Source: an uncultured Methanosarcinales archaeon (GTDB lineage Archaea > Nanobdellota > Nanobdellia > Woesearchaeales > UBA12501). Taken from it: DNA of 64,000 nucleotides. A program made the translations under genes and the position numbers. Each line of letters starts with the position of its first letter. Positions within the stretch are counted from its first letter, which is position 1. Location of the stretch: positions 48,711 to 112,710 of the forward strand of contig CAYWPA010000002.1 in NCBI GenBank assembly GCA_964459835.1, read 5' to 3'. Positions 9,016 to 47,803 of this stretch are shown here, piece by piece. The notes under the pieces are model-generated. The model was not told the origin of the DNA, made no database searches, and was given only the letters and a program-made list of their open reading frames with translations.

Positions 9016-9659
9016 TGCAGGAGATAATAACAAAAGACAATTCTCCAACAATAATGTCTTTGGAGTATTCTGAACCATACCGTTCCATTTCCGGAGCAAT
9101 GGAGGAATCTTTCAAGAAGTTTATAGGCCCGTGCAGGATAAAAGAATTTAAGGATGAAGTAAGTATTTTAGACATTGGCTTTGGCTTAGGCTATAATGTA
9201 TGCGCAGCTGTAGATGCTGTTTTGGAAGCAAATCCAAAATGCAATTTAGTTGTTTTTTCATTGGAAAAAGATAAAGAAATATTAAAAAAACTACAAAACC
9301 TAAATCCAGCTTTTAAAAATTACAATATGATAAAAGGGCTGGCAAAAAATCTTGAGTATAGAAAAGGCAATATAAATTTAAAGATTATTCTTGGCAATGC
9401 AACAGAAACAATAAAAAAAATAAATACAGATTTTGATGCAGTGTTTCTTGACCCTTTCTCCCCTCCGAAAAACCCTGAGTTATGGACAGAGGAATTTCTT
9501 AACGAGGTTGCCAAAAGAATGAAGAAAAGCGGGATTTTGGCGACCTACAGCTGCGCCAGGATAGTGAGGGAGAACATGAAAAAAGCAGGCCTTATGCCAG
9601 AGGACGGTCCATCCGTCGGAAGAAGGGCCCCTTCTACAATAGCAAGAAAAGCTTTATAA
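9015..9659 (+). CDS. MnmC/MnmD-like SAM-dependent tRNA methyltransferase (DUF752)
   Basis: DIGFGLGYN (SAM site) and FLDPFSPPKNPELWT...ILATYSCARIV..G closely parallel E. coli MnmC, DGFAPAKNPDMWT...LATFTSAGFVRRGL. Confidence 0.65.
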   Translation: MQEIITKDNSPTIMSLEYSEPYRSISGAMEESFKKFIGPCRIKEFKDEVSILDIGFGLGYNVCAAVDAVLEANPKCNLVVFSLEKDKEILKKLQNLNPAFKNYNMIKGLAKNLEYRKGNINLKIILGNATETIKKINTDFDAVFLDPFSPPKNPELWTEEFLNEVAKRMKKSGILATYSCARIVRENMKKAGLMPEDGPSVGRRAPSTIARKAL

Positions 9660-9660
9660 A
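9639..9660 (+). repeat. 22-bp direct repeat, left copy (ATAGCAAGAAAAGCTTTATAAA), includes the stop codon of the mnmC-like gene
   Basis: Perfect 22/22 match with 10651..10672. Confidence 0.85.
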
Positions 9661-9683
9661 ATATCAGAATATTAATAGTTAGT

Positions 9684-10550
9684 ATGAAGTTGAATTATAT
9701 TTCCCTATTGGCAATTTTGTTAATTGGTATGGTTTTTCTAAGCAGTTGTATGTCACAAGAATCACCAACAAAAGCTCCGACTACCACTCAACCATCTGAC
9801 ACTCCAGAAACAACACAACAAGAAACAACATCACAACAGCCAGATAAAGTTATTGACAAAGGAGACTTTAAAGTTGTATACGATTCGGTAGAAAACCCAG
9901 ATTTTATTGAATTAGAAAAAGTGCTTAAAGAATCAAAATTATTTGAAGAGGTAACAAACGAACTTAATAATAATTTTGCTTTACCTTATGATATTCTTGT
10001 TGTTTTTGAAGAATGCGGAGAAGAAAATGCGTTTTACGATTCGAATACTAAACAAATAACAATGTGTTATGAACTGATGGGTTACTTTGCCAAAGTATTT
10101 TATGATTATTCTGAAGATGATAATGACTTGGGAACGGCAATGCTAAATAGCATGTTTTTTGCATTCTATCATGAAGTTGGTCACATGATGGTTGATATAT
10201 ATGATTTACCTGCTACAGGCAATTCTGAAGATAATGCTGATCAAGTATCTACATTAATTCTTTTGAGTGACGAGGCTGATGGAGTAAGTACACTTTTGAA
10301 TGGGGCCAATTGGTTCTTTATAAAATCTGAAGAATCGGATATTGAAGAATCTATATTTTCAGACATTCACTCTCCCGATAAAAGGAGGTATTATAATCTC
10401 TTATGTTGGATTTATGGTAGTGACCCTGAAAACGGAGAATACATAATTACAGAATGGGAACTTCCAGAAGAAAGGGCTATTGGATGTGAAGAAGAATATA
10501 ATCAAATGTCTAATAGCTGGGATCGTTTGCTTTCTCCTTATTTCAAATGA
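9684..10550 (+). CDS. secreted/lipoprotein putative zinc metallopeptidase (HEVGH; DUF4344-like)
   Basis: Signal peptide with an LSSC lipobox, a T/Q/P-rich linker and an HEVGHMM HExxH motif. More AT-rich than its flanks and bracketed by the 22-bp direct repeats. Confidence 0.55.
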   Translation: MKLNYISLLAILLIGMVFLSSCMSQESPTKAPTTTQPSDTPETTQQETTSQQPDKVIDKGDFKVVYDSVENPDFIELEKVLKESKLFEEVTNELNNNFALPYDILVVFEECGEENAFYDSNTKQITMCYELMGYFAKVFYDYSEDDNDLGTAMLNSMFFAFYHEVGHMMVDIYDLPATGNSEDNADQVSTLILLSDEADGVSTLLNGANWFFIKSEESDIEESIFSDIHSPDKRRYYNLLCWIYGSDPENGEYIITEWELPEERAIGCEEEYNQMSNSWDRLLSPYFK

Positions 10551-25798: not shown

Positions 25799-27076
25799 AT
25801 GTACATAGCAATTATAGGCGGGCAAAACGGGGATGAAGGCAAGGGAAAGATAATCCATTGGCTGGTGAAGCATGCTGCCGAGAAAGTAAAAAGAAGTTAT
25901 GACAATAAGCCAATTCTAGTGCAGCGCTGGCAGGGAGGAGCTAATGCTGGCCATACTATTGTCGAGGACAATGGAGAGATGTATAAGCTGCATCTAGTCC
26001 CAAGCGGAATCACGACACAAGAAGCATTTAACCTTATTGGGGATGGTGTTTACCTTGATCCAAGAAAATTGATGAAAGAAATCCAAGAGTTAAGGGGAAG
26101 AGGAGTGAATGTTTCCAGCCAAAATTTAGGCATAGCTTCAAAAGCGCATATCACTTTTGATTACCATACTGCTGAAGACCAAGCTGATTTTAATAAAGCA
26201 AGGCATACATCAACAGGAAGCGGAATTAAACAGACAGCTGTTGATAAATTTGGAAGAGTTGGCATTAGGTTTGTGGAATTTTTAGATGCAGAAGCATTGG
26301 CAGCTGTGCTAAGGGAAAAAAGATTTCCAAATGGGATGCCCGGCACAAATATAGATAATTTTGTAGCAAGTTATGACACTGAAAGGGAATTTCTGAAAGA
26401 ATTTATTATACTTGAGCAAGATGCCATAAAAAAATATGGAAAAGCTTATAGAATTGGAGAAGGCGCGCAAGGAACCTTATTGGATGTTGATGTAGGAATG
26501 TATCCAGGAATAACCTCTTCAAACCCTGCAAAAGCTCCTGGAAGGCCAGATTATGTCTTAGGCGTTTTCAAATTGTATGTAAGCAGCGTTGGAACAGGCG
26601 ACAGGCCATTTGTTTCCCGCATGGATAAGAATTTAGAAACAGAATTAAGAGAGCTATGGCAGGAAAGAGGCACAACAACAGGAAAAGACAGGGAACTTGG
26701 TTGGTTTGATGCTGTTGCTGCAAAGGAAGCAATAAGAAATGCAAACATTGATTATTTGGTCGGCACTTGTGGAGACAGGTTAAATGAATTAGGAAAAAGA
26801 AACGAAAAAGTCAGGATAGTTACTGCATATAAAATTAATGGAAAAGTTTATTCTGAATGGGATGTTAGCTTTGACAATAGGTTTACTCTGCAAAGAGCAG
26901 AGCCGGTGTTGGAAGAATTAGAGTCTTGGACTGAATTTAGTATTGATGGACAATTAACCAAAAATGCACAAAGGTATCTTGATAGGCTTCAAGATTTATT
27001 AAGAAGGGAATTTATCATGTTCGGCACAGGGCCTAAGCAAAATGACATGCTTGTTTATAAAGATCTTTTAGCTTAG
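25799..27076 (+). CDS. purA: adenylosuccinate synthetase
   Basis: GGQNGDEGKGKI P-loop, GANAGHT and a TTGKDRELGWFD-type motif. Confidence 0.85.
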   Translation: MYIAIIGGQNGDEGKGKIIHWLVKHAAEKVKRSYDNKPILVQRWQGGANAGHTIVEDNGEMYKLHLVPSGITTQEAFNLIGDGVYLDPRKLMKEIQELRGRGVNVSSQNLGIASKAHITFDYHTAEDQADFNKARHTSTGSGIKQTAVDKFGRVGIRFVEFLDAEALAAVLREKRFPNGMPGTNIDNFVASYDTEREFLKEFIILEQDAIKKYGKAYRIGEGAQGTLLDVDVGMYPGITSSNPAKAPGRPDYVLGVFKLYVSSVGTGDRPFVSRMDKNLETELRELWQERGTTTGKDRELGWFDAVAAKEAIRNANIDYLVGTCGDRLNELGKRNEKVRIVTAYKINGKVYSEWDVSFDNRFTLQRAEPVLEELESWTEFSIDGQLTKNAQRYLDRLQDLLRREFIMFGTGPKQNDMLVYKDLLA

Positions 27077-27595
27077 TAAGCTCCTAAGCCAGTTTATTAT
27101 TTTTTCAAAGAAACTTTCTGGCTTTTGTTGTTCTTGGATTTCAGCAGATATGTTCTCTACAGGTTCTGGCTGCGCAGTTATATTTTCTTGTTTTTCCGGC
27201 TCTGATCTATCATTAACAATCTCTTTCTCTATTTCATTTAAATTAAGGTTTTTCCCTTCATATCCATAGAAATAATACTCAACATAATCAGCACCATTCT
27301 CATCAATTATTATTGTAGTAGGGATTATCTCGCTTCCGTCTGAAAACCTGAAGCTTTCATCTTCTTTCAGGGCTTTTGAATGCTCCCCGTTAACACTAAA
27401 AACAACCTCTCTGGTCGGGTCAGAAACCACTACAATCTTTACTAAATACCCTTTATTTTCCCCTGTAAGGTAAAGCTTAGGCATGTTTTCATAAACCCTG
27501 TCTTTTTTTGTAAACTTTGCACTTGCCAAGCTTATGCAAAGCAGTCCAATGACAAAAAACAAAATTATTCTTTTGATTTTTCCATCCTCCAGCAC
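27068..27595 (-). CDS. secreted/TM-anchored hypothetical protein
   Basis: N-terminal hydrophobic segment, then an acidic C-terminal region. Confidence 0.4.
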   Translation of the reverse strand: MLEDGKIKRIILFFVIGLLCISLASAKFTKKDRVYENMPKLYLTGENKGYLVKIVVVSDPTREVVFSVNGEHSKALKEDESFRFSDGSEIIPTTIIIDENGADYVEYYFYGYEGKNLNLNEIEKEIVNDRSEPEKQENITAQPEPVENISAEIQEQQKPESFFEKIINWLRSLLS

Positions 27596-30741: not shown

Positions 30742-31353
30742 TTAAGCTTCTACTATATTTTCTTGCTTTTCCTGCTGGTTCTGCTGCTGGGTTTCTGCAA
30801 TCTTCTCGTTTTTAATGGTTCTCTGCAACTCCCTGATCAGCTTCTGTGTTTCATCCATGTTGTTTTTAATGGCTAGAATAGCCTTCTCAAAGGCCATTTC
30901 CAATGTGTTTCCACTCAGCTTATACCCGATAACAACCTTTCCTTCGCTGATATAGCTTGTTTTTACGATCAGGCTGATATCTGTCCATCGCTTTAAGTAG
31001 TCATACATTGTCTGCCTTGTAATCCCAGCATAATATCCCATCTGCTCAACTGTCATTACAGCCAATTCCGGCTTTTTCTGTCTGTAAGCCTGCTTGCTTC
31101 TCTCGTACATCTCTACCATAACCCGGTACATCTTATCGGTAGAGCCTTTTTTTCTTGGCATTAAGCCGATTCTTGACAGAACAACATTTGCCAATTCGTC
31201 AGTACTTGGATTTAAGCTAGGCTGCACATCCGTCAATATGATTTTTGCGGTTTTGAATTTAATCACCTCCACAAACACATATATGGTATATACTTCTTCT
31301 GGGATTTTATTTAAAAGCTTTTGGTATTCTGCCGACAAGGAAAAAAGTTTCAA
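30742..31353 (-). CDS. winged-helix DNA-binding protein (203 aa)
   Basis: Central HTH VEQMGYYAGITRQTMYDYLKRW plus a wing; Q/E-rich tail. Confidence 0.45.
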   Translation of the reverse strand: MKLFSLSAEYQKLLNKIPEEVYTIYVFVEVIKFKTAKIILTDVQPSLNPSTDELANVVLSRIGLMPRKKGSTDKMYRVMVEMYERSKQAYRQKKPELAVMTVEQMGYYAGITRQTMYDYLKRWTDISLIVKTSYISEGKVVIGYKLSGNTLEMAFEKAILAIKNNMDETQKLIRELQRTIKNEKIAETQQQNQQEKQENIVEA

Positions 31354-31793
31354 AAGTAGTTTTTTGTTTTTGCTTAAAGATTTTAGTTCAGTTATTTTAT
31401 TGTTTTTTTCTCTGTTTGATAAAAATAAAAAAACAATAAAAAATAAACAAAATACTTTGCACTCTGCTTAAAGGTTTTTGTTATTTTTATATATACTGCT
31501 TATAATGCATTAAAAACAAAAATCAACACTAAACCATGGCCTTTTGGCTCATTTTCTGACAAAAAACTTTAGTTTTTTTATTATTCGGAATTATTCCGAA
31601 TTTTCCTTTTTCAAAAAACTGGCTTATTTTGGCATTATCCCAAAATCAGAATTTTATTCTGGCATTATGCACTAAAAAAAGGAATTATGCCGACAAATTT
31701 CGCAAAACAAGTTCGAGGGGTCAAAACCCTAGAACCCAGGTTCTACAGCAAAACTCTGCAAAAGATGCAGAAATAGGGTAGATTGCAGGAGCA

Positions 31794-32153
31794 TTACTGT
31801 GTTTTTCCGACACCGTTCCTTAACTCAAGTATTTTGGACACCAAACTATCTACAACAGTTTTTTGATGTTCAATCAGTTCTGCTACTTTTATATTGTATC
31901 TTTCTGCCTCTTTTTCTGGAAGAACATATATATTTCCATTATCCAAATAAAAAACCCTTCCTCTAAGGCCGAATTCTTCTTCAATTCCATCAAAGTCAAA
32001 AATATCGGCAAGCTCCTGCCTTTCCGTATGTTTCCTTATTCTTTTTTCTTCTTCAGGTGTCATAGCATAGCCAAGAAATTCTCCATGCTCAGCCCTTAAA
32101 AATAACAAGTAATCATATTCAGGGGGAAGAAAATAACACGTTTTATTGCTCAT
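31794..32153 (-). CDS. hypothetical protein (119 aa)
   Basis: Complete ORF of unknown family, flanked by AT-rich repeats. Confidence 0.4.
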   Translation of the reverse strand: MSNKTCYFLPPEYDYLLFLRAEHGEFLGYAMTPEEEKRIRKHTERQELADIFDFDGIEEEFGLRGRVFYLDNGNIYVLPEKEAERYNIKVAELIEHQKTVVDSLVSKILELRNGVGKTQ

Positions 32154-32345: not shown

Positions 32346-34370
32346 CTATCCAAGAATGTTAACAACAGGCTGCCTTTGCTTGTGGGGATACTCAATGATT
32401 AAGTCATTGTTGTTGCCGGCATCCTCTTTAATAAACAAAGCTCCATACTCTGTCAAGCCCATGTCTGTGCTGGAGTCAGCCTTTCCAAGCTTTATTGCAG
32501 ACTGGGAAGGAATATCAACATCAAGGACAGCATTTGAGGTAAACACAATGCTAACAGATTCATCACTGCTTCTCTCTCTTATATTTTTCTTTAAAGTTGT
32601 CAGAGTAATTGTCAAAGGAGAAGCTGGAGTCAATGAAGAGCCTAAATCCAGGATTCCTCCTCCTCTTGTAACTATATTTGCCTCATCTCCAAAGCTGTTG
32701 TCTCCTGTAAGGTCAACAGCTATTGGATTTCCAGAAGCATCTGAAATGAAAAAATTAAAAGAATCTCCGCTTATAGAAAAGCTTCCTTCTCCCAATACTC
32801 CTGCAGTTGAAGAAGGCAAATAAGCAGCTGTTATTGTTGATCCAGACTCATCATCAAACAGTATGGTGCTGCTTCCTGTATCGATTCCATCATACTTCAT
32901 AATGTTTGTTCTTCCATCATCTGTATTAGAGCTTGAAGCAGCAAAGAAGTCATTTTCTTCAATTACAAAGTCGGTATTTGAAGCCCCTTCTATGTAAATC
33001 AAATCCTGGTCTTCATCTCCATATTTAAATGTTACACTATTGTCCAGCAGAGGAATATCATATTCTTTTCCTGATGTGCTCTCAAACTGCAGCTTGTAAG
33101 CATCATCACCTGAAGAATCAAGCTTTATTATTGAAGTAGGGACATCTTCAAGACCTTCATACATAATATCCCATCCCCCTAGCATAGCACTGCCAATGTA
33201 ATCAGAAAGCTTTTCTCCGTCTTTCAGATAATATTCATCGCCTGCTTCAAACCTGTAAGTTATTGTGTTTAATGTATAAATATCTCCAGACCTGCTTCCT
33301 TTGATCCTTACTTTTCCTCCCTCAATTGTTTTCTGCCTTAATTTAACGCTTCTTTCAAATTCATTGTCAGCTGTGTTGCTGTCTTTGAAATTTATTTTTG
33401 ATGCTCCTACATACATCTCAATCAAATCCCTTCCATTTTCTCCTGCTTCTGTTGTTATTATCTCTCTAATTCCAACTTCGCTTCCGTCTGATAAAACATC
33501 AACCTCGCCTTCTTTTAGCTCAGATGTTGATTTTTCGTTTACTGTCAATTTTACGCTCTGTGCTGCATCGCTGACAATAGAAGCCCTTATGTTATATGTT
33601 GTTCCTCCTATTTTGTAAACTTTTGTCTCTCCTTCTCCTAAAATATCATGTATCTCTCCTGATATCAAGTCCAGCTCTACTCCATTATTGCTGTCTATCT
33701 TTGCCATTATAACAGCATAAGGCCTTCCAAGAATGTTTATTGTCTCGTCTTCCAGATCCACTAATCTTCCGTTGTCTATTTTGCTCTGCAACCCAGCTGC
33801 AAACTCTATTTCGTACTCAAAAATATCCTTGTCGTCAAAGAAAAGATAGTCTCTTGTCTCTCCGCCGTCTTTTTTAAAAACAGGTTTTCCTGACGATATT
33901 CCGTCGCTGTCAAACTTTAAGAATTGGGAATAAGGCGTTGCCTTTGTTTTTGTTGTTATTACTCCTCCCTGCAAAGCAGCCAAATTCGCCTGTGTCAAAA
34001 TCCTTACTTCTTCTCCTATTGATTCATTCAGCTGCAGGTTTTTAACCCTAAATACTCCCTGCTTGTTTACAGGCTCAATCGGAACTCCGCATTTTCCATC
34101 CTGGCAGCCGTAATGGCACGTTAATGCAACTTTTGTCCCCAACACACATCTCTGCAGAATATCTCCCTCGCAAATATCTTCTGTGCATTCAGCTTTTCTT
34201 TCTTCTGCTTCTTTTTTCGGCTCTTCTTCAGGCTTTTCTATTGTCTCGGGCCCTTTTTCTTCTTCAGCAGCCAGTGTTTCATTTATTTTATACTCCATAT
34301 CTTTTATTTTGCACCCAGAACTAAATATAATCAAAACAAAAACCATTAATATAAAAATTATTTTTTTCAT
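32346..34370 (-). CDS. large secreted Cys-rich/Gly-Asp-Ser-rich surface protein (674 aa)
   Basis: Signal peptide MKKIIFILMVFVLIIFSSGC, an N-terminal Cys cluster and a long beta-rich G/D/S/T region. Confidence 0.5.
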   Translation of the reverse strand: MKKIIFILMVFVLIIFSSGCKIKDMEYKINETLAAEEEKGPETIEKPEEEPKKEAEERKAECTEDICEGDILQRCVLGTKVALTCHYGCQDGKCGVPIEPVNKQGVFRVKNLQLNESIGEEVRILTQANLAALQGGVITTKTKATPYSQFLKFDSDGISSGKPVFKKDGGETRDYLFFDDKDIFEYEIEFAAGLQSKIDNGRLVDLEDETINILGRPYAVIMAKIDSNNGVELDLISGEIHDILGEGETKVYKIGGTTYNIRASIVSDAAQSVKLTVNEKSTSELKEGEVDVLSDGSEVGIREIITTEAGENGRDLIEMYVGASKINFKDSNTADNEFERSVKLRQKTIEGGKVRIKGSRSGDIYTLNTITYRFEAGDEYYLKDGEKLSDYIGSAMLGGWDIMYEGLEDVPTSIIKLDSSGDDAYKLQFESTSGKEYDIPLLDNSVTFKYGDEDQDLIYIEGASNTDFVIEENDFFAASSSNTDDGRTNIMKYDGIDTGSSTILFDDESGSTITAAYLPSSTAGVLGEGSFSISGDSFNFFISDASGNPIAVDLTGDNSFGDEANIVTRGGGILDLGSSLTPASPLTITLTTLKKNIRERSSDESVSIVFTSNAVLDVDIPSQSAIKLGKADSSTDMGLTEYGALFIKEDAGNNNDLIIEYPHKQRQPVVNILG

Positions 34371-35083
34371 CCTACATAGCTTAATCTTTTCTTTTTCTGC
34401 TCTTCTGTTGTAGCCTTTGCCTGCTCCATCAATCCCTTTAATTTGCTTTCAAACTTCTCTGCCTGCTCAAGCAAAGGAGCCGGATCAAGCTTTAATCCAA
34501 GGTACTTGTCCAGAACCTCTATGATCTTTGCGGCAGCCTTGCTGTCAGGCATCTGGCTTTCAGTCTCTGCAAATACGCATGAAAGCGCTGCTTTATCAGC
34601 CTCTGCAAGCAAAGCCCCTGTTACACCAACGATAATCCCTTCTTTTAATTCCTCTACGCCGATGTTCTTGAATTTTTTCTTGTTTTCCTCTTTGTTTGAA
34701 TAGAAAAAGCACTGCATCATGTCCTGCTCTATTGCTCCAGGAGAAGCAACTCCTTCCAGGCTTATTAACTCCTTTGCATCCAGCTGCTTTGCAATATCAA
34801 TTATAGCATCGGCTATCGCCCACTCAAAGCCTTGTACATTTGTAACTACATGGAATATCATTATGTTTGTCTTTTCATCATGGAATATCTCAATCGGCTT
34901 GACAATCTTTCCGTTATGGATTGCAATCATTGCAGGAAGGTCATCTATTTTAACTATTCCGATAGGCTTTGCCTTCAAGGCTTCTATTAAAAATTCTGTT
35001 GTGATTGTCCCTATTAATCCAAATCCTGGAAATCCCTCTATTATCGTAGGCTTCATGGGCTTTTTAGTTAGGGTTATTTTCAT
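34367..35083 (-). CDS. PAC2-family (proteasome assembly chaperone-like) protein
   Basis: IEGFPGFGLIG (GFPG.GL.G signature). Confidence 0.65.
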   Translation of the reverse strand: MKITLTKKPMKPTIIEGFPGFGLIGTITTEFLIEALKAKPIGIVKIDDLPAMIAIHNGKIVKPIEIFHDEKTNIMIFHVVTNVQGFEWAIADAIIDIAKQLDAKELISLEGVASPGAIEQDMMQCFFYSNKEENKKKFKNIGVEELKEGIIVGVTGALLAEADKAALSCVFAETESQMPDSKAAAKIIEVLDKYLGLKLDPAPLLEQAEKFESKLKGLMEQAKATTEEQKKKRLSYVG

Positions 35084-36040
35084 CTAAATGTTCACCTCTT
35101 CTAAAATCTTGTGCAGGTTTCTGCAAACATTTACAGAAAGCTCTATTTCTTTGCTTAATTCATCCTCTTTAACTTCTAATTTGTTTATCGTGAAAAGAAT
35201 GTTAGTTGTTTTTTCTTTGCATTCAGCAATTTTATCTTCAATGCTTTTTGTTGCAGTTCTTCCAATTGCTTTTTTTAAAGCATCAACAGACTTTTCCAAT
35301 GCCTTGAATTTTTCTTTTCCTGATTCAATATAATCAGCAACTTCAAACTCTTCAGCATCTTCCCGTTGTAACACGGCCCTAAGGGCATTCATCTGATTTC
35401 CAAGCTTCTCATTTAAATCATTAGCTTGTTTTGCGTTAATACGTGCAATATTTTGCAATAAAATCATGAAATTAGTACTTAACAAACGCTCAGTTTTTCT
35501 GGTGATCCTGCTTCTTGCCTTCATTCTCCTGTCGATTCTTCTTATCTTTTTTATCAGCTTTTCTTCCTCATTTACTTTTGATTTTAACTCGTCTGCCAGT
35601 CTTTTAGCGTTCTTTCTATTTGCAGGAAATTCGATTTTTATGCCATCCATAAGCATGAATGTGCTTTGAAGGTCGTTTTTCATTTCTTTTGTATTGACCT
35701 CAAGGCCTTGCATTAGCATCGCATTAAGCCTTTTTTCTTCATTTAGTGTATCGTTAATATTATTTTTTATATCTTCAACAATTTTTTTTGTATTTTGCAT
35801 ACCTTCTCTTGAAACTGCTGGCGCCTGTGCTGGTGCAGCTACTTCAGGCAGTGGAGATATATTTAACTTACTAGTAACCTTTCTCAGCTTCATAGCTAGG
35901 TCGTGGTTTGCTACACTTGCTCTCAATGCTATTTTGAATTTATCCCTATTATTCTTTGCAACTGCTTTTCCCCGAGCTATGATTTCTCCTATGCTTGCCA
36001 TTTTACATTGAATCCTCTCCTGCAGTGAATGCAGCTTCAA
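35084..36040 (-). CDS. coiled-coil protein (318 aa)
   Basis: Heptad-rich K/E/L sequence in an operon with the membrane paralogs. Confidence 0.45.
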   Translation of the reverse strand: MKLHSLQERIQCKMASIGEIIARGKAVAKNNRDKFKIALRASVANHDLAMKLRKVTSKLNISPLPEVAAPAQAPAVSREGMQNTKKIVEDIKNNINDTLNEEKRLNAMLMQGLEVNTKEMKNDLQSTFMLMDGIKIEFPANRKNAKRLADELKSKVNEEEKLIKKIRRIDRRMKARSRITRKTERLLSTNFMILLQNIARINAKQANDLNEKLGNQMNALRAVLQREDAEEFEVADYIESGKEKFKALEKSVDALKKAIGRTATKSIEDKIAECKEKTTNILFTINKLEVKEDELSKEIELSVNVCRNLHKILEEVNI

Positions 36041-37136
36041 AATTATCCATTAAATCTACATGTTGTCCTGTTAATCCTTCCCATTCCAATGCTTTATCTA
36101 CAAACTCATCTATTACATGCTCTTCAAGATGGGCTGTGTTTGGATCTGTTAAAAACCAATGGAATCTTGAATTTATATCATTTCCAAGATTGTGAAGATG
36201 TATTGTTAATTCATTAAGCTGATTCCATAAATCTGCATCAACAGGCGGCGCTCCTGCTGTAATATGCGCATGGTTTGCTGCAAGTATGTTATTTAACAAA
36301 TGTTCTAAATCTTCAAGCGTGCTTTCAAAATCATGCATAAATCCTTCAATTTCATGCAAATACTCGTGTAAATGTGCGACATGCGGCGCTCCTCCTCCGC
36401 CAGGTCCTCCATGACCGCCCCCGCCTCCTGGTCCAGCTCCTCCACCACCAGGGCCTCCTGCAGGCGGTGCTCCGCCGGCTGGCGGGTGTCCTCCACCACC
36501 AAATAAGCCTCCAAACCAGCCTCCAATAGCTCCTCCTGCTCCGCCAGTTAAAGCAAGGAAAGCATACACTATTGTCATTATTATTGCAATGCCTATTATG
36601 AATTGCGCAATGTTTCTTAAAGTAGGTATAAAAGTTACCTGTGTTCCTGAAACGTTTAAGAAATTACTTACAATTACTGCCAGCAGATAATAAGCCAAAG
36701 CTTTCATTCCATAATGAAATCTTGTAGGCTGCGGGAATGCTTTGTGTATACCATAAACCAGGCCAACAGTTGGAAGGCCGATAATAAATACAGTTGCAAC
36801 AATGCCATAAGACTGGAAGATTGCAGTCAAAATGCTTGCAGGCATAAAGGTTGTTGAAATCAAAGCAATGATAAAAGCAACTGTTGTCCTTATGTTCTTA
36901 TGCTCTTTATCAGCAAGGAATGGAATCATCCCTGAAACAGCATAAAGCACTGCAAAGAGCAGAATCCATATCATAAATTTTGCCCAGAACGTGAACTCAA
37001 GCCCAGACAATGTTCCCATGAACAAAATAGGCCTTAGCGCATTCATTATTGAGCCAGCAACATTGCCTATCTGCGCATAGGCAGAAGTAGCCAAAACAGC
37101 GAATACAAACAAATATGCTAATATCTTTTTGCTCAT
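36003..37136 (-). CDS. signal-peptide multi-TM protein with Gly/Pro-rich linker and His-rich C-terminal domain (paralog 1)
   Basis: SP ...SAYA|Q. TM core TTVAFIIALISTTFMPASILTAIFQSYGIVA is paralogous to 37133..39052. Low-complexity GGGGHPPAGGAPPAGGPGGGG, then an HxxH-rich tail. Confidence 0.5.
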   Translation of the reverse strand: MSKKILAYLFVFAVLATSAYAQIGNVAGSIMNALRPILFMGTLSGLEFTFWAKFMIWILLFAVLYAVSGMIPFLADKEHKNIRTTVAFIIALISTTFMPASILTAIFQSYGIVATVFIIGLPTVGLVYGIHKAFPQPTRFHYGMKALAYYLLAVIVSNFLNVSGTQVTFIPTLRNIAQFIIGIAIIMTIVYAFLALTGGAGGAIGGWFGGLFGGGGHPPAGGAPPAGGPGGGGAGPGGGGGHGGPGGGGAPHVAHLHEYLHEIEGFMHDFESTLEDLEHLLNNILAANHAHITAGAPPVDADLWNQLNELTIHLHNLGNDINSRFHWFLTDPNTAHLEEHVIDEFVDKALEWEGLTGQHVDLMDNFEAAFTAGEDSM

Positions 37137-39052
37137 TTTCCTTTTTTAATAAACGCTCCCAGCAGCCTTAAAAGGCCATTTGCTTCCCCAACAATTAGGT
37201 CGTATTCTTTTTCTATATCTTTTTTCATTCCTATGAATATTGTAAACGTAAAGCCAGGAGACCTTATCTGCTCAAGGAAACCTTTAAGCCTGTTGCAGTT
37301 TTCTTGTATCCTGTATGCAAACTGTTCCTCCTGCTTGACAATTTCATCTTTTTTCTCACCCAATATCTCTTTGTCCTGCAATAGCCTTCTTAGAAGCCTT
37401 TGGACAAAATTCAGCTCTCTTAATATATTATCTGTGCTTGTTTCAATAATGTAAGGAAGGTCTTTTCTTCTCCTGTTATAAGCTTTCTCTCTCTTTATAT
37501 TATGGATGTTCTTTTTTGATTCATCTGCAAACTTCCTTATTCTTCTTAGTTCAACTAACTCTTTCCTTTCAAGCCTTAGCTCTCTCTTTATTTCTACTTT
37601 TTCTGCCTCTTCCACTTCTATGATTTTTTCTGCTACTTTTTCTTCGTACTCAAGAAGCTGCCTTATCCTTTCTTCATGATGCTGTATCATATTCCTTAAC
37701 TGCATCAGCCTATCCATATCAACTATCATGTTCTTCTCATTCTGCTCAAGCTCAACAAGCATCCTGTCTGCATTTATCAAAAGGCTTAGTGCCTCCTGCA
37801 TCCTGTCTTCCTTAAGTGCATTTTGCATTGCAATTATGGTTTCAAGGATCTGGACTACAGCCTTTTCCTCTATATCAGCCCTTCTCTGCTTTTCAAGGAT
37901 TTCTGCATTTGCCTCGTTTACTTCCTGCAGCTCTTTTTCCATATCTATTTTTTCAGCCTCAGCAACCTTCAGCTGGTCTTCCAGACCCCCTTTCTCAGTT
38001 TCATCTTCTGTTTTTGCAAGCATCTCTTTGATAGTTTCCATTTCTTGTGCTTTTCTCTTTGCAAACTTGTTCAGAGCTTCCACTTTTTTCCTGACATCAT
38101 CAATCAGCGGCTTTATCACCACTACATTCCAACCTCTGACCTCCTGCCTTATCCTTCTCAGCTCTTCATTGACTCCTGCGATTTTCTGATTAATCTCCTC
38201 CTTTGTCATTGTATGGTTCTGTAGCCCTTCTAGCATTGCCTTTACTTCGTTTATCATCCTTTCAACAGCACTTATGTTTGTCTTATTTTCATTTACAAAC
38301 TTGCCGAGCTTTTCATCAATAACCTTGCTGACATCTTTTCCCATAGTCTTTCTCATCTTTTCGGTTTCTTTCTCAAAATCTTTCTCCTGCCTTTCCCTTC
38401 TTGAAGGGCCTGTTCCGCCCAAATGCATTCCGCCTAAGTTAAGGCCTCTGCCGAATAAAGACATCAATGCTGCGCCGCCATGCCAAATCATAAATCCCAT
38501 TGGAATCCATATCAAAGAATTAAACCAGTCTCCAGCTCCATAACCTCTTCCCAATTCTTCATTAAGCCAGGAGATAAACCTGTATGCAATCCATGTTGAA
38601 AATGCAGCAAGAATAAATCCAATTGCATGCGCTAAAAAAGGATGGTCAGCGCCTATTCCATCTTTTAATCTTTTTGAAAGATAAATCATTGCAAAAATCA
38701 AGCCGCCTAATAAAATAAGAACAGCGACTATGCTGTAAGTCTGGAAAATAAGCTGAACCATCTTTGCAGGAATAAAAGTAACAGACATCAATGCGATGAT
38801 TCCTGCAACTACTGTTCCAATCCTGTTGTCATCTCCAAACACTTTTCTTCCAGCAGCAGTAAGGACTGAAAACAGCAAAAGCCAGATCAAGAATTTGGCT
38901 GCGAGTGTTTCTTTTGTTATAAAATCAAATACACCAAGAAGTGTCAGAAAAGCCTTCTTTAAAGGCTCACCAAACTCCTGTGCATGGGCAATAGGGAATA
39001 CAGAAAGGGTCATTAATATATTAAAAAATATCAAAAACCTCTGTTTTTTCAT
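37133..39052 (-). CDS. signal-peptide multi-TM protein with ~400-aa coiled-coil tail (paralog 2)
   Basis: SP ...PIAHA|Q. TM core TVVAGIIALMSVTFIPAKMVQLIFQTYSIVA. Long K/E coiled coil. Confidence 0.5.
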   Translation of the reverse strand: MKKQRFLIFFNILMTLSVFPIAHAQEFGEPLKKAFLTLLGVFDFITKETLAAKFLIWLLLFSVLTAAGRKVFGDDNRIGTVVAGIIALMSVTFIPAKMVQLIFQTYSIVAVLILLGGLIFAMIYLSKRLKDGIGADHPFLAHAIGFILAAFSTWIAYRFISWLNEELGRGYGAGDWFNSLIWIPMGFMIWHGGAALMSLFGRGLNLGGMHLGGTGPSRRERQEKDFEKETEKMRKTMGKDVSKVIDEKLGKFVNENKTNISAVERMINEVKAMLEGLQNHTMTKEEINQKIAGVNEELRRIRQEVRGWNVVVIKPLIDDVRKKVEALNKFAKRKAQEMETIKEMLAKTEDETEKGGLEDQLKVAEAEKIDMEKELQEVNEANAEILEKQRRADIEEKAVVQILETIIAMQNALKEDRMQEALSLLINADRMLVELEQNEKNMIVDMDRLMQLRNMIQHHEERIRQLLEYEEKVAEKIIEVEEAEKVEIKRELRLERKELVELRRIRKFADESKKNIHNIKREKAYNRRRKDLPYIIETSTDNILRELNFVQRLLRRLLQDKEILGEKKDEIVKQEEQFAYRIQENCNRLKGFLEQIRSPGFTFTIFIGMKKDIEKEYDLIVGEANGLLRLLGAFIKKGK

Positions 39053-39194
39053 CCATACACCTCGGTATGGCTAATTTTAGGGAATTTTCTTTATAAATAT
39101 TTCCAATGGTTAGTGATAAGGAAAACTTTAAATAACCATAATGCAAATAAAAGGAAAAGGTGATATTTTGAGCATATTAAAAGGAAAAAGAGGC

Positions 39195-39315: not shown

Positions 39316-39678
39316 ATGAAAGTAATGATAACAATATTCGGACTAATGACTGTGCTTGCAGGAGTTCTTCCGTTTGCAGGAAATTTTAACATTCTGCCAG
39401 CTTACATTCCAACAACAGGAATGTGGTACTATGGGATAATTATTGGAATCGGAGTTTTGGGATTTATCTATGGTGTTACAAATCCAGGAATGCTGTTATA
39501 CGGAACTGACAGGTTTATTCCAGTTTTCCTCGGTATTTTGACTCTTTTTGGAGGAGTTCTTCCATTTGTGCAGAATTTTGGATTTTTGAAAATGGTTCCA
39601 GCAACAGGACTTATTTATTCTGGAATAATTTCTTTGATAGGGATTATTGGAATTATTTACGGAGCAACACAGATTTAA
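39316..39678 (+). CDS. membrane protein with internal duplication (120 aa)
   Basis: Two ~55-aa halves, each containing GVLPF..NF. Confidence 0.45.
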   Translation: MKVMITIFGLMTVLAGVLPFAGNFNILPAYIPTTGMWYYGIIIGIGVLGFIYGVTNPGMLLYGTDRFIPVFLGILTLFGGVLPFVQNFGFLKMVPATGLIYSGIISLIGIIGIIYGATQI

Positions 39679-39932
39679 ATAATTTCTACTTTGCTTCCTA
39701 CTGCCTGTCCTGGCATTCCTTTCTCAAACAGAACTCTTACTGCTCCTGAATTTCCATGAGCAGCTCTTATCTCTCCTTTAATTTCTTTGCTTGCAGGGCT
39801 TTTCCATACTACTTTTTTTCCAACAAGGCCTTTTGCCTTATCTTTGTTGTCTACTCCCTTGACTACAACAACCATGTAAGTATCTCTTTGCGTATGCACT
39901 CCCTGCCTGTAATTTTTGATTACTGCTTCCAT
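39675..39932 (-). CDS. rpl35ae: 50S ribosomal protein L35Ae
   Basis: LVGKKVVWKSP...HGNSGAVRVLFEKGMPGQAVGSKV matches the L35Ae signature. Confidence 0.8.
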   Translation of the reverse strand: MEAVIKNYRQGVHTQRDTYMVVVVKGVDNKDKAKGLVGKKVVWKSPASKEIKGEIRAAHGNSGAVRVLFEKGMPGQAVGSKVEII

Positions 39933-40017
39933 AACAGTTTGGATTTTGAGATGGTTTATAAAGCTTATTGCCTTGGTTAAGTCTAACGACTGTTGCTAAA
40001 AGTCTAACGACGGCCAC

Positions 40018-40052
40018 TAATTATTTTCCATATAGAAAAAAATTAAAACGGC
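40018..40052. promoter_or_regulatory. conserved palindromic upstream motif, copy 2 (TTATTTTCCATATAGAAAAAAATTAAAA)
   Basis: Upstream of rpl35ae (minus strand). TATA-like TTTATAAA at 39946-39956. Two 12-bp direct repeats AAGTCTAACGAC lie at 39979-40011. Confidence 0.5.
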
Positions 40053-41242
40053 AAGAAATATAGTATTACAGGCAGCATAAGGCAGCCCATTGCGTGGGTT
40101 CTTGAAGTCTTGGCTATAGCCGGAATAATGCCAATGGCAGTGCTGACTATCAATACAAAAATACCAATAAATCCGGATAAAAACAAAGCCATGATAAAAA
40201 TAAACAAAATAATGAAAAGAACCAGTTTTTTATAGTTTATTTTTGATATTGTCTTTGCGAAAAAATTTCCAAGGCTTAATGCAGCAATAACGCTTAGCCC
40301 TGCAACAATCAATGTAACTGCCAAAAAAATCAAAACATACTCAAAAGATGCATCAATCAATTTTGTTATTGCAACAACGCTTCCGTTTCTTGCCTTGCCT
40401 ATAGTCAGCCAGGAAATTAAGCTTAGGACAAAATTGACAGTATTGATAGAGCCGATCAAAATCATAAATCCATGGTCTCCTAATTTTCTTGTAATCTGCA
40501 TTGAGATTACTGCTGCCTGCGCGGCTCCTAATCCAGGAAGAAACGAAGTCAAGAATCCTGAAAACTCACCTGAAAACAGGGCAGCAAAAGTTTTCTTCCA
40601 GTTTAGCTTTATTTTCTGGATTTTATTTTGCACTGGTATGGAATTGCTTTCATTTAAGCTGATCAGTAATGTGCTTACCCCAAATAATCCAGACAGCATC
40701 GGGAAGAGCGGCTCTTTTATTTGTAAGTTTAAGACGATTAACCCAAAAACGCCAGAAAGCAGAAAAATAAGCAGCGCCCATAGCTTTTTTCTGTCCCTCA
40801 GAATCATAAAAACAATTACTGCCAATAATAAATAGCCGATGTAGTTTGATATTATTGGGTAAGCATATTTGACAATAGGCATAAAAAGAAAAAACAGCAG
40901 CAAGCTCAAAATCACAGCTCCAAAGCTTCCTATCAAAGTAAGCTTTACAGCCATCATGCCATTTCCTCTCATCAGATACCTATGCCCCGGCAGCACACCA
41001 AGTGCCATGTCTGCTTCAGGGGCTCCAAGGAATATCGAAGGCAAAGAATCAATAAAGGTATTTGCAACTGAAACTGTTATTATGAACACAGCCAATGCCA
41101 ATGGAGATATGAACTTCAGCAGAAAAGGGGAAATGCTGACAAGAAAGGCAGCAACAAGATTTGTATGTATACCTGGAGTAACCCCGCAGATTATTCCAAA
41201 TACCATGCCAAGCAAAATAGCTATTAATATCTCGAAAAACAT
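40043..41242 (-). CDS. TctA-like (DUF112) multi-pass membrane transporter
   Basis: ~11 TM helices with GVTPGIH near the N-terminus, resembling the tripartite tricarboxylate transporter large subunit family. Confidence 0.5.
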   Translation of the reverse strand: MFFEILIAILLGMVFGIICGVTPGIHTNLVAAFLVSISPFLLKFISPLALAVFIITVSVANTFIDSLPSIFLGAPEADMALGVLPGHRYLMRGNGMMAVKLTLIGSFGAVILSLLLFFLFMPIVKYAYPIISNYIGYLLLAVIVFMILRDRKKLWALLIFLLSGVFGLIVLNLQIKEPLFPMLSGLFGVSTLLISLNESNSIPVQNKIQKIKLNWKKTFAALFSGEFSGFLTSFLPGLGAAQAAVISMQITRKLGDHGFMILIGSINTVNFVLSLISWLTIGKARNGSVVAITKLIDASFEYVLIFLAVTLIVAGLSVIAALSLGNFFAKTISKINYKKLVLFIILFIFIMALFLSGFIGIFVLIVSTAIGIIPAIAKTSRTHAMGCLMLPVILYFLPF

Positions 41243-41340
41243 ATAGCTGTTATTTTTTGGTATTTAATAAAAACAAAGGAAAAAAATCCGGAAAATCTGC
41301 ATTTCTATTGAAAAGTTTTCATACTCTGTCTTAAAAGCCT

Positions 41341-41685
41341 CTAGCCTAAATATCTGATTTCATCAGCAATGACCTCATAGTCATTATTATACTTTTCAAC
41401 TTTGCCTACAACTTCAACTTTGTCACCTTTTTCCAGATTTAAAAAATCATCAAAAATCATCACATTGATTTTTTCTTTTGTATCTATTTTGATTAATTTG
41501 GAATTCTCAAAATTAACAATATCAATTACATTGCCTTTAACCAAAACCTTATCTCCAAGGCTTTCATCATTCAGCAAGGAAACACTTGCTTCTTCAACAT
41601 CGGAAAACTCCAGAATATAATAAAGCATCAGCACTCCTAGGATGCTTGCAATCAAAGCAGCCTTAAGCAGGGTCTTGTCTTCCAT
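41341..41685 (-). CDS. TM-anchored OB-fold (tRNA_anti-like) protein
   Basis: N-terminal TM helix, then a KVLVKGNVIDIV...KGDKVEVVGKV OB-like fold. Confidence 0.45.
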   Translation of the reverse strand: MEDKTLLKAALIASILGVLMLYYILEFSDVEEASVSLLNDESLGDKVLVKGNVIDIVNFENSKLIKIDTKEKINVMIFDDFLNLEKGDKVEVVGKVEKYNNDYEVIADEIRYLG

Positions 41686-41811
41686 AATACTTATTCATCT
41701 GCTGTTTTTATAATTTCTTTCAATGTTTTATTGAAATTCTTTCATCTTTTTTGGAACTTTTGCGGAATTTTATCAATAAGCAATAATAAAAGCCATTGCT
41801 TAAGACATGAT

Positions 41812-42150
41812 ATGAAAGCTTTAGCAAGGATACACGAAACCTTTATATATCAATTGATATATAAAAGGGATATGGCAGCCCAAGTGCTGAAAAATCCTTT
41901 TGAAAGGTCCCCAACACTTGATACTGTATTGATGGTAGAGAAAGCTATTGAAAACCACAGCGGGGAATTCAACAGGACAGAAGTATGGAAGAAACTGCCT
42001 AGAAAAGTAATGTGGCAGACTTATCTTGTTATTCTGGATTATCTTGAAAGCATTAACAAGATTGCTTTCGATAGAAAAGGCAAGGTTGCATATATCTGGA
42101 ATCCTAAACTAGCAAATAAATTAAGAATGAGAAAGGAGATCCAGGTATGA
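41812..42150 (+). CDS. putative antitoxin partner (start uncertain)
   Basis: Overlaps the downstream YoeB-like toxin by ATGA. No recognisable antitoxin family motif. Confidence 0.3.
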   Translation: MKALARIHETFIYQLIYKRDMAAQVLKNPFERSPTLDTVLMVEKAIENHSGEFNRTEVWKKLPRKVMWQTYLVILDYLESINKIAFDRKGKVAYIWNPKLANKLRMRKEIQV

Positions 42151-42473
42151 TAAAGCCGTCAAAAGTTGTTTTTATAGATGAAAATCTGGAAAAATGCTTT
42201 GCTTCTTTAAATGAAAATGATTTTATTAAGAAAGCAATTATCAGGGCAATACATGATCTGCGGCAAAATGCTTTTTCCGGCATCCAGGTTCCCAAAAAAT
42301 TAATACCAAAAGAATATGTTCAGAAATATGGTATAAATAATCTTTGGAAGTATGATTTGCCAAAAGGCTGGAGATTATTATATACAGTAACTGCTGATAA
42401 TGAAGTTGAGCTAATCTCTGCAATCCTAGAGTGGTTTAACCATAAAGAATACGAAAGAAAATTCAAATACTGA
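42147..42473 (+). CDS. YoeB/RelE-superfamily toxin
   Basis: [12 protein letters not shown]...[15 protein letters not shown]...[33 protein letters not shown] parallels YoeB (LIWSEES...INELIKDTRRTPFEG...WSRRI..HRLVYAV). Confidence 0.65.
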
Positions 42474-42531
42474 TCCAAAAACAAAGGTAAAAACCAACAA
42501 GCTTATAAATCCTTATTGTCTCCCACTAATA

Positions 42532-44418
42532 ATGATTAAAAAGTTCAAATCTACTAAAGATGTTGATGTTTCTGATAGGATGATTGACCAGGTTGTAGGC
42601 CAGGAAGAAGCTGTCAATATAGTAAAAAAAGCCTCTGCCCAGAGAAGGCACGTTCTGCTTATAGGAGAGCCTGGAACAGGTAAGAGCATGCTTGGAATGG
42701 CGCTTGCAGAGCTGTTGTCAAAGGAAAAATTAGTTGATATTCTTGCATTCTTCAACCCAAACGATGAAAACCAGCCATTGATAAGAGTGGTGCCTGCGAG
42801 CCAGGGAAGGAACATGGTTTCAGGAGCAAGGATGCAGAGCATGGATATGTTCAAGAACCAAAATATAATTATGTTTATTCTTGTGATACTTGCAATGATT
42901 GCCCCATGGTGGGCTTTGAAATATTACTCAAGACCAGACCAATTAGGCGTAACAGGTGGAGCAATTATCTTTGCAGCCTTCTTTTTGGGAGCAATGGTCT
43001 TCCTTGCTTCATTCATAATATTCATCAATGTGGGGAAGAAAACAGGGCAGAAAGTCCAAGTACCTAAATTAGTTGTTGATAATTACAAAAGAAAGCAGGC
43101 ACCTTTTTTTGATGCTACAGGGGCGCATGCAGGAGCTTTGTTAGGAGACGTGCTTCACGATCCGTTTCAGTCAGGAGGCTTAGGGACCCCATCGCATGAA
43201 AGGGTTGTCGCAGGAATGATACACAAGGCAAACATGGGTGTTTTATTTATAGACGAGCTTGCAACATTGCAGCCGCATACACAGCAGGAATTGCTTACAG
43301 CTTTGCAGGAAGGAAAATATGCAATCACAGGGCAGAGCGAAAGAAGCGCAGGAGCTATGGTAAGGACAGAGCCTGTGCCATGCAATTTTATTTTAGTTGC
43401 TGCAGGAAATATGGAAACAATAACCAATATGCACCCTGCATTGAGGAGCAGGGTAAGGGGATATGGCTATGAAGTTTATATGCAGGACACCATGCCTGAC
43501 ACAGAGGAAAACAGATATAAGATTGCGCAATTCGTTGCGCAGGAAGTTAAGAAGGACAAGAAAATCCCTCACTTCTCAAAAGACGCAGTTGACGCTATAA
43601 TTGAGGAGGCAAAAAGAAGGGCAAACAGAAAGTACCATCTGACTTTAAGGCTAAGGGAGTTGGGAGGGATTGTAAGGGCAGCAGGAGATTTGGCAACAGA
43701 GGAAAAATCAGATTTTGTGCAGAGGAAGCATGTTCTGGATGCGAAAAAAATTGCAAGGACTTTGGAAACGCAGATTGCTGACAAGATAATAACAAGGAAA
43801 AAAGAATATGAAGTTATTGTAACAACAGGAAAGAAGATTGGAAGGGTAAACGGCTTGGCAGTCATGGGAGGAGAGACAGGAATTTACTCCGGAATAATTT
43901 TGCCGATTGAAAGCCAGGTCACTCCTGGAGGAAAAGAGGCGCAGATAATTGCAACAGGAAAATTAGGAGAGATTGCAAAGGAAGCAGTAATTAATGTTTC
44001 TGCAATCATAAAAAGATTTTTTGGAGAAGACATCAAAGAGAAGCATGATATTTATGTGCAGTTTTTGCAGACATATGAAGGCATTGAAGGAGATTCAGCT
44101 TCAATAGCAGTTGCGACTTCTATCATTTCTGCATTAAAGCAGGTTCCTGTAAGGCAGGATGTTGCAATGACAGGCAGTTTATCAGTTCGCGGAGAAGTAC
44201 TTCCGATAGGCGGGGTTTCTGCCAAAGTAGAGGCAGCTGCAGAAGCAGGAATAAAGACAATTATTGTTCCAAAGTCAAACATCAATGACATTGTTGTTGA
44301 CAAAAAGAAGCTTAAAGGAGTAAAGATTGTTCCTGTTGACAATATTTCAGAAGTCCTTGAAGAAGCATTGGACTGGAAAGGAAAAGAAGATATTCTGAAG
44401 AAGATAAAGAAAGGATGA
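42532..44418 (+). CDS. lon: archaeal membrane-bound Lon protease (LonB)
   Basis: Walker A GEPGTGKS, two-helix TM insertion in the AAA+ module, and a catalytic Ser in [13 protein letters not shown] (Lon S-K dyad domain). Confidence 0.9.

Positions 44419-44566: not shown

Positions 44567-47803
<3,237 letters not shown>

Follow-up and report, generated by a model that had tools for sequence, protein, structure and literature searches.

PAC2-family proteins of the Pba type have been described in two forms in archaea. PbaB is a tetrameric proteasome activator that works by means of an HbYX motif at its C-terminus, and PbaA is pentameric, fails to bind the proteasome, and forms a 10:10 'tholos' complex with the rod-shaped protein PF0014 (PMC3605417, PMC6992696). 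The genes for PbaA and for PF0014 belong to a common transcription unit in Pyrococcus, Archaeoglobus, and Methanococcus (PMC6992696). The subject of this work is an operon of five genes on the minus strand, at positions 32346-39052 of a 64,000-nucleotide (nt) stretch of archaeal DNA (contig CAYWPA010000002.1, hereafter the window), in which a PbaA-like gene follows two genes for paralogous multi-transmembrane (TM) proteins and one gene for a helical protein, and precedes a gene for a surface-layer (S-layer)-related protein. The conserved core of this locus is read here, tentatively, as a membrane-anchored cytoplasmic coiled-coil scaffold that possibly tethers a PbaA assembly, in a host of the Woesearchaeota-type DPANN archaea. 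The anatomy of the locus is firm; the main uncertainty of this reading concerns the coupling to PbaA and the cellular role.

The likeness to the PbaA/PF0014 unit of Euryarchaeota lies in the PbaA-like identity of the PAC2 gene (gene 4) and in gene order, since this gene is encoded right after a gene for a rod-like helical protein in what is presumed to be one transcription unit. The partner encoded here is 250-350 amino acids (aa) long across the related loci, while PF0014 has about 150 aa (our estimate from the mass of the complex). A further difference is that two membrane-anchored proteins are encoded 5' of the partner gene. The parallel between the two ring-and-rod pairs is suggestive.

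A functional analogy can also be drawn with bacterial EzrA, in which a single TM helix anchors a cytoplasmic coiled coil. The gene 1 protein of the operon resembles it in that its membrane anchor is N-terminal and leads into a predicted cytoplasmic coiled coil several hundred residues long. There is, however, no sequence relationship, and gene 1 lacks any Pfam match. The anchor here is a five-TM domain behind a signal peptide, and it occurs as a pair of paralogues, the second of which carries another type of tail. Judged by its module composition, the locus corresponds to no described system; its newness is claimed on that composition and on the lack of sequence or fold relatives of its core family, and not on a demonstrated mechanism.

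Operon structure and the family of five-TM anchors

The five genes lie back to back, as described in the first-pass annotation of the window, and overlap or abut one another. Gene 1 (639 aa, 37133-39052) encodes a signal peptide and five-TM core (residues 1-215, nt 38408-39052), followed by a Lys/Glu-rich coiled-coil tail of about 420 aa that is predicted to be cytoplasmic; proteins of this architecture are called CC-type below. Gene 2 (377 aa, 36003-37136) encodes a paralogous signal peptide and five-TM core (nt 36492-37136), a Gly/Pro-rich linker evident in the translation (residues 198-247, nt 36396-36545), and, at the C-terminus (nt 36006-36395), a helical domain that bears a D-P-N-F-like motif, an architecture called GP-type. 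Gene 3 (305 aa, 35084-36001) encodes a soluble helical protein without a signal peptide, in which a Pro-rich linker joins an N-terminal helix to a long region rich in heptads. Gene 4 (238 aa, 34367-35083) encodes the PAC2-family protein of PbaA type, which ends in LSYVG, and gene 5 (674 aa, 32346-34370) encodes an S-layer-related protein that may be a surface lipoprotein.

There is no intergenic space in the operon. Genes 1 and 2, as well as genes 4 and 5, share ATGA overlaps of 4 nt, and the stop codon of gene 3 abuts the start of gene 4. The open reading frame (ORF) of gene 3 was first listed as 35084-36040, giving 318 aa if the TTG at 36040 serves as the start. The most likely start is the ATG at 36001, one base past the stop of gene 2, and a separate gene caller applied to the same DNA also returned a protein of 305 aa. 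A TATA-like box, TTTATAAA (39090-39097, minus strand), lies 38-45 nt 5' of the first ATG of the operon and may act as its promoter, and a putative ribosome-binding site, GAGGTG (39058-39063, minus strand), can be read 5' of gene 1. The locus is thus organised as a tight operon whose genes are presumed to be co-transcribed.

The two membrane proteins share their N-terminal ~215 residues, with 46% identity across the best 80 aa (E=3e-15), and no similarity was found between their tails outside the N-terminal 215 residues. This bears out the proposal of paralogous TM cores joined to unrelated tails. In a crude heptad scan, 71% of the gene 1 tail falls under a heptad pattern, compared with 26 +/- 13% in shuffled sequences, and for the 305-aa gene 3 product the values are 58% and 27 +/- 13%. 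The scan supports the coiled coils that had been noticed in both proteins.

The core belongs to a sizeable family. A profile built from both paralogous cores and run against 1.84 billion proteins retrieved 293 cluster representatives at E<=1e-3, of which 49 reach E<=1e-10. In nearly all members, a variable tail follows an N-terminal core of about 220 aa. A word-index search with the TM core of the 639-aa protein had returned nothing, for the technical reason that a 42-aa fragment represents its 90%-identity cluster. When the search was repeated with a 39-sequence profile, it yielded five proteins only, and a scan of genome contigs gave only four short loci.

Known families were sought by several routes. 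Among 39 diverse members, no Pfam family was matched by more than two (best E 0.005) and no NCBIfam family by more than one, and searches of PHROGs and PADLOC gave zero matches. A sequence-profile search of the PDB with the core reached E 0.08 at best, to a designed binder, and Foldseek searches with the core model found nothing at E<1 in the PDB and nothing at E<0.5 in BFVD. Neither hidden Markov model nor structure searches place the core in a known transporter family, so that this refuting condition named in the first-pass annotation does not apply. The annotation had also stated that no known system matches the locus; this holds for the TM core, is wrong for the 674-aa protein, which is S-layer-related, and is incomplete for the PAC2 protein, which is PbaA-like. 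The core is a genuine family, and on the grounds that nothing in Pfam, NCBIfam, or the PDB matches it, it is considered previously undescribed.

Several candidate identities were rejected individually. The septal nanopore protein FraI scored 14.5 bits against a cut-off of 225, with just one of the 39 members matching, and the stator proteins TolQ and PomA were retrieved by Foldseek at noise level (E>4, probability <=0.07). Conjugation families of TrbL/VirB6 type and stator families of MotA/TolQ type were likewise matched by no more than two of the 39 members in Pfam and NCBIfam. What FraI, TolQ/PomA, and the tetraspan or LRRC8-type bundles have in common with the core is that all are small helical membrane bundles of similar size; none is a relative.

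An AlphaFold (AF2) model of the gene 2 core, built from a 39-sequence alignment, has a predicted local distance difference test (pLDDT) score of 83, a confident value; after the helix of the signal peptide, it shows five TM helices, along with a single short helix at the membrane interface. Prediction of the whole 377-aa protein from its single sequence was uninformative (pLDDT 49). Conservation within the core is concentrated in TM1 (F-W-A-K-F-L-I-W-x-L-L-F), in TM2 (A-L-I-S), and in the subsequent helix (I-P....I-F-Q-x-Y-G); the alignment contains one invariant Phe, and one Tyr and one Pro that are each 95% conserved.

The orientation of the core is well supported by the distribution of its charges. 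Lys and Arg are concentrated in loops 1 and 3, including the adjoining helix starts (about three in each), while loops 2 and 4 have about 0.5, and because of this enrichment the positive-inside rule places the N-terminus outside and the C-terminus inside. The n-region of the signal peptide is basic in alignment A2, and the predicted cleavage site shows Pro at -5 (67%, position 17) and Ala at -1 (77%, position 21). In several related loci (numbered here with L, and their proteins with P), the coiled-coil part is encoded by its own gene directly 3' of a short TM gene and has no N-terminal hydrophobic segment. One such split-off tail, a 671-aa protein of L004, is homologous to the fused tail of P0039 (E=2e-32). 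The existence of the tail as a signal-less protein argues that it is cytoplasmic, and it follows that the large domains of genes 1 and 2 would be intracellular, alongside what genes 3 and 4 encode. The parts of the gene 1 and gene 2 proteins that are predicted to face outwards amount to no more than two short loops and some 25 N-terminal residues. By charge distribution, split tails, and heptad enrichment, the predicted functional class, which is not one of homology, is that of a membrane-anchored scaffold whose coiled coil lies in the cytoplasm. A cell-surface attachment apparatus, as had been suggested, is therefore unlikely to be formed by the tails.

The tails of the family fall into three classes. 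CC-type tails are Lys/Glu-rich coiled coils like that of gene 1. GP-type tails resemble that of gene 2 in having a Gly/Pro linker and then a helical domain of ~110 aa with the D-P-N-F-like motif, and they occur in about 47 of 150 sampled members. The remaining class includes short tails accompanied by a separate coiled-coil gene. Between different lineages, no homology of the coiled-coil tails was detected. When neighbour-joining was carried out on the cores alone, the nearest neighbour had the same type of tail in 72 of 80 cases; the neighbours of the gene 2 core are all GP-type, and those of the gene 1 core are CC-type or split-type. The agreement between core and tail indicates that the gene 1/gene 2 pair stems from an ancient rather than a local duplication.

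The Gly/Pro linker and the His-rich tail of the 377-aa protein had both been pointed out before, and both can be read in its translation. The His fraction of this tail is 0.10, in comparison with 0.00-0.07 in nearly all homologues and 0.10 in one other. The His columns are unconserved in orthologues, which rules out the suggested metal binding as a property of the family.

One locus, L021, contains a family gene that is apparently split (7845-10036). The core begins in a 167-aa ORF, which holds its first part, and a 563-aa ORF that overlaps this one has an initial hydrophobic segment and then a coiled coil. This may be due either to a frameshift or assembly error or to a real fission.

The PbaA-like protein and the conservation of gene order

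The assignment of gene 4 to the PAC2 family, already made on first inspection, is confirmed by a match to Pfam PF09754 at E=4.9e-37 (128.3 bits against a cut-off of 25.8) that covers profile positions 2-214 of 215. NCBIfam TIGR00161 scores 134 bits, under its equivalog cut-off of 199. Among solved archaeal relatives, the best match is 3WZ2, the PbaA of P. furiosus (E=1.3e-29), followed by 3GAA (Ta1441; 1.6e-16) and 3VR0 (PbaB; 1.6e-12). By these scores, gene 4 is a PAC2-family gene nearer to PbaA than to PbaB. Its orthologues are 52-60% identical and form the final gene of the module in other lineages.

The C-terminus of the protein is conserved in a form of its own. All five PbaA-like orthologues (nt 34367-34384 of the window, L015, L016, L029, and L031) end in an identical pentapeptide, LSYVG, preceded by a basic patch. 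The canonical HbYX motif is absent from all five, in which the Tyr is third from the end and not penultimate. HbYX is present in many of the Pba proteins of archaea, and the last residues of PbaB are Gly-Tyr-Leu (PMC3605417). The motif is common in the PAC2/PbaA family and is not needed for Pfam membership.

The order of the genes is retained over considerable divergence. In the window, a CC-type gene (639 aa) is followed by a GP-type gene (377 aa), the helical gene (305 aa), the PAC2 gene (238 aa), and the S-layer-related gene (674 aa). The corresponding genes in L016/L017/L018 encode proteins of 628, 378, and 354 aa and a PAC2 protein of 238 aa, and the next gene is on the opposite strand. 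In L029/L030 (and L007), L35Ae precedes a TM gene (333 aa), a coiled-coil gene (252 aa), a GP-type gene (371 aa), a helical gene (310 aa), a PAC2 gene (246 aa), and then a DNA-alkylation-repair-like gene. L031/L032 have TctA and L35Ae, then a CC-type gene (516 aa), a helical gene (332 aa), and a PAC2 gene (235 aa), after which the strand changes. In L015, a CC-type gene (549 aa) and a GP-type gene (395 aa) are followed by three other genes before a PAC2 gene (257 aa). Finally, L025, L024, L026-L028, and L008 show the order CC-type, GP-type, helical as far as their contigs extend. Thus, the order CC-type, GP-type, helical, PAC2, adjoining L35Ae, is found in at least five divergent lineages, with the qualifications that L031 lacks the GP-type gene and that the PAC2 gene of L015 lies 3 kb downstream. 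A rod-like helical gene is located directly 5' of the PAC2 gene in four lineages. Joint conservation of the genes elsewhere, which the first-pass annotation had made a condition of its reading, is found for four of the five: gene 5 follows the module in this lineage only. The absence of a gene 5 counterpart elsewhere means that the conserved unit consists of genes 1-4 (sometimes 1, 3, and 4) and not of all five.

Genes 1 and 2 represent two old subfamilies of an anchor domain in which a Sec signal peptide, predicted to be cleaved off, precedes a short helix on the outside and five TM helices. According to the scaffold reading, the two anchors would assemble in the membrane and project the long coiled coil and the Gly/Pro-tethered helical domain of ~110 aa along or into the cytoplasm. 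There, these domains would bind the soluble rod protein encoded by gene 3 and a PbaA ring. The product would be a scaffold at the inner membrane face, similar to the ring-and-rod complex of euryarchaeal PbaA and PF0014 but fixed to the membrane. A more specific version is that Woesearchaeota-type DPANN archaea build a membrane-tethered version of the PbaA tholos, in which the five-TM anchors dock the rod protein and PbaA rings, possibly at a host-contact or division site; in this detailed form, the idea is improbable.

Several observations weigh against the scaffold reading. Gene 3 has no detectable homology to its positional equivalents in other loci (hhalign probability <=6%). Because the gene 3 equivalents cannot be aligned, the conservation at this position is architectural only. 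Every PAC2-linked locus lies in the same syntenic neighbourhood (L35Ae/TctA/LonB), so that the linkage could in part reflect synteny inherited within one clade and not a functional coupling. In L015, where the PAC2 gene is apart from the TM genes, it overlaps an RNase H-like gene by 4 nt. The five-TM core also occurs fused to a papain-like peptidase (Peptidase_C1) in a 730-aa protein (L033, 10001-12193) that stands alone, with no PAC2 gene nearby. This fusion argues that the core is a reusable membrane anchor, a module that appears to be independent of PbaA. Lastly, the best-conserved motifs of the core (FWAKF...W..LF and IP....IFQ.YG) are at or near the outer membrane face, which hints at an extracellular partner that the scaffold model leaves unexplained.

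Much of this would also be expected from synteny without a common function, an explanation of minor though appreciable probability. According to this, one unit is made up of the two TM proteins and perhaps of gene 3 as well, a PbaA-like housekeeping gene has stayed adjacent to it within the clade, and gene 5 joined by chance. The shared flanking core genes, the displaced PAC2 gene of L015, and the TM core without PAC2 in L033 are all consistent with this, as is the fact that PAC2 evolves far more slowly (52-60% identity between lineages) than the TM cores (27-41%) or the helical proteins, for which similarity is undetectable. On the other hand, order and tight spacing (0-57 nt) have been kept in four lineages even though the genes 3' of PAC2 differ in each, and PbaA is co-transcribed with a rod-like partner elsewhere (PMC6992696).

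The joining of one core to a coiled coil, a DPNF domain, or a papain-like peptidase is typical of sensor or anchor modules, and it raises the question of whether the locus might encode a channel, a transporter, or a system for outside-in signalling. In that case, a pore or sensor would arise by oligomerisation of the five-TM cores, and the cytoplasmic tails would serve as its gate or as relays of its signal. CorA- or LRRC8-like channels with cytoplasmic coiled coils, and receptors with swappable output domains, provide parallels. Since the TM helices contain no conserved charged or polar residues apart from a Lys at the boundary, such a role is unlikely.

A second papain-like peptidase was encountered in L004, where a C1 peptidase fragment (1-1140) is encoded immediately 5' of a TM-family gene.

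The S-layer-related gene at the end of the operon

The 674-aa product of gene 5 had been described as a Cys-rich secreted protein. It turns out to be homologous to the central region of Woesearchaeota S-layer proteins. It can be aligned with 11 proteins at 28-35% identity over 59-91% of its length (E down to 4e-71), two of which are named S-layer proteins by NCBI. Residues 112-670 (nt 32361-34037) are colinear with residues ~106-725 of Woesearchaeota S-layer proteins of 814-959 aa.

Canonical Woesearchaeota S-layer proteins are of the Methanococcales type and contain PF05124 ('S-layer like family, outer domain'), which is split around a central insert (match 33-835). The likeness of gene 5 to these proteins comprises homology to the central insert and an N-terminal secretion signal. 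Both halves of PF05124 are missing from the gene 5 protein, in which a Pfam scan did not find the family, while its homologues P0005 and P0007 do match (E=6e-13 and 1e-15). In place of the PF05124 halves, gene 5 encodes a lipobox Cys and a six-Cys module: the signal peptide contains a lipobox-like FSSGC (Cys20) and is followed by an acidic linker and six further Cys at residues 62-94. The product may be a lipid-anchored surface protein rather than a former of the lattice.

The position of gene 5 invites the interpretation, close to that of the first-pass annotation, that the locus encodes an envelope-spanning or S-layer-anchoring apparatus, in which the outer face of the core holds the S-layer or the gene 5 lipoprotein and couples it to the cytoplasm. 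Gene 5 is translationally coupled to the operon here through its ATGA overlap, and no TATA- or ribosome-binding-site-like signal comparable to that before gene 1 was found upstream of it. The conserved signal peptide and the outward position of the best-conserved core motifs point in the same direction. The comparison with other loci does not. An S-layer-type gene 3' of PAC2 is present in the window only, and L017, L029, and L031 have other genes there. Conversely, no TM-family gene lies within 10 kb of the canonical S-layer gene in L001. The exposed portion of the core is also very small, and the large domains are all predicted to be cytoplasmic. An S-layer-anchoring function is thus doubtful, with a low probability. 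From the distribution among loci, gene 5 appears to have been appended to the operon, as its last gene, in this lineage alone, and it is placed outside the conserved machine. Two candidate ORFs near the canonical S-layer gene of L001 (326 and 389 aa) proved unrelated.

The window contains another trace of S-layer sequence. A 175-aa signal-anchored protein (27068-27595, minus strand) contains, as a single copy, a segment that in Woesearchaeota S-layer proteins belongs to the central region, with 37% identity over 84 aa to residues 257-338 of P0009 (E=4e-6). It may be a small S-layer-associated protein.

Genomic neighbourhood, host, and significance

The upstream landmark of the module is the gene for ribosomal protein L35Ae (39675-39932, minus strand; Pfam E=1e-15), which adjoins TM-family genes in L005, L008/9, L015, L021, L025, L029, and L031. 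The operon is flanked by L35Ae, a TctA-family membrane protein, an OB-fold (membrane) protein, and LonB, and the same landmarks are found at no fewer than six other family loci. These core-gene flanks indicate that the operon resides on the core chromosome and not on a mobile element. A viral or mobile origin was ruled out, given the absence of IMG/VR relatives and of PHROG or PADLOC matches in addition to the core-gene flanks. The block of LonB, OB-fold membrane protein, TctA, and L35Ae (39675-44418) is itself conserved upstream of the family in L008/9, L021, L025, and L031.

Divergent from the operon, on the plus strand (39316-39678), is a gene for a 120-aa protein with four TM helices and an internal duplication, seen as two similar halves. 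It is a recurrent neighbour of the TM family: a homologue is located beside a TM-family gene in L004 (E=6.5e-31), and L015 has a protein of similar size for which homology was not detected. The protein could be a further component. Downstream, two small genes (30742-32153, minus strand), one for a protein of 119 aa and one for a protein of 203 aa that weakly matches a helix-turn-helix, have no counterpart in any related locus and are outside the module. Farther upstream, a DNA gyrase B gene (44633-47803, plus strand) has an intein inserted where its GyrB domain gives way to the Toprim domain (Pfam Intein_splicing, residues 431-854).

The closest relatives of gene 5 are labelled Candidatus Woesearchaeota, and members of the TM family come from records labelled Woesearchaeota or Nanoarchaeota. 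Three family contigs of ~5 kb or less carry other bin labels (Methanosarcinales for two and Gammaproteobacteria for one), which are regarded as doubtful.

Most DPANN archaea have yet to be cultured; their cells are very small, a large share of their proteome lacks annotation, and conserved hypothetical operons are common among them. The present analysis defines a membrane-anchor family with two ancient subfamilies, swappable cytoplasmic tails, and a conserved linkage to a PbaA-type gene. If this linkage is not functional, the locus is another conserved hypothetical operon, with a corrected annotation of its S-layer-related gene, a useful but ordinary result. To our knowledge, PbaA has no established cellular role, not even in model euryarchaea. 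A functional linkage would yield a testable hypothesis on what PbaA-type rings do, and it would hint at a cytoskeletal structure associated with the membrane in cells that are too small to house most of the systems known. Should the membrane-tethered version of the tholos exist, it would place PbaA in a cellular context for the first time and would be a new cytoplasmic structure associated with the envelope of ultra-small archaea.

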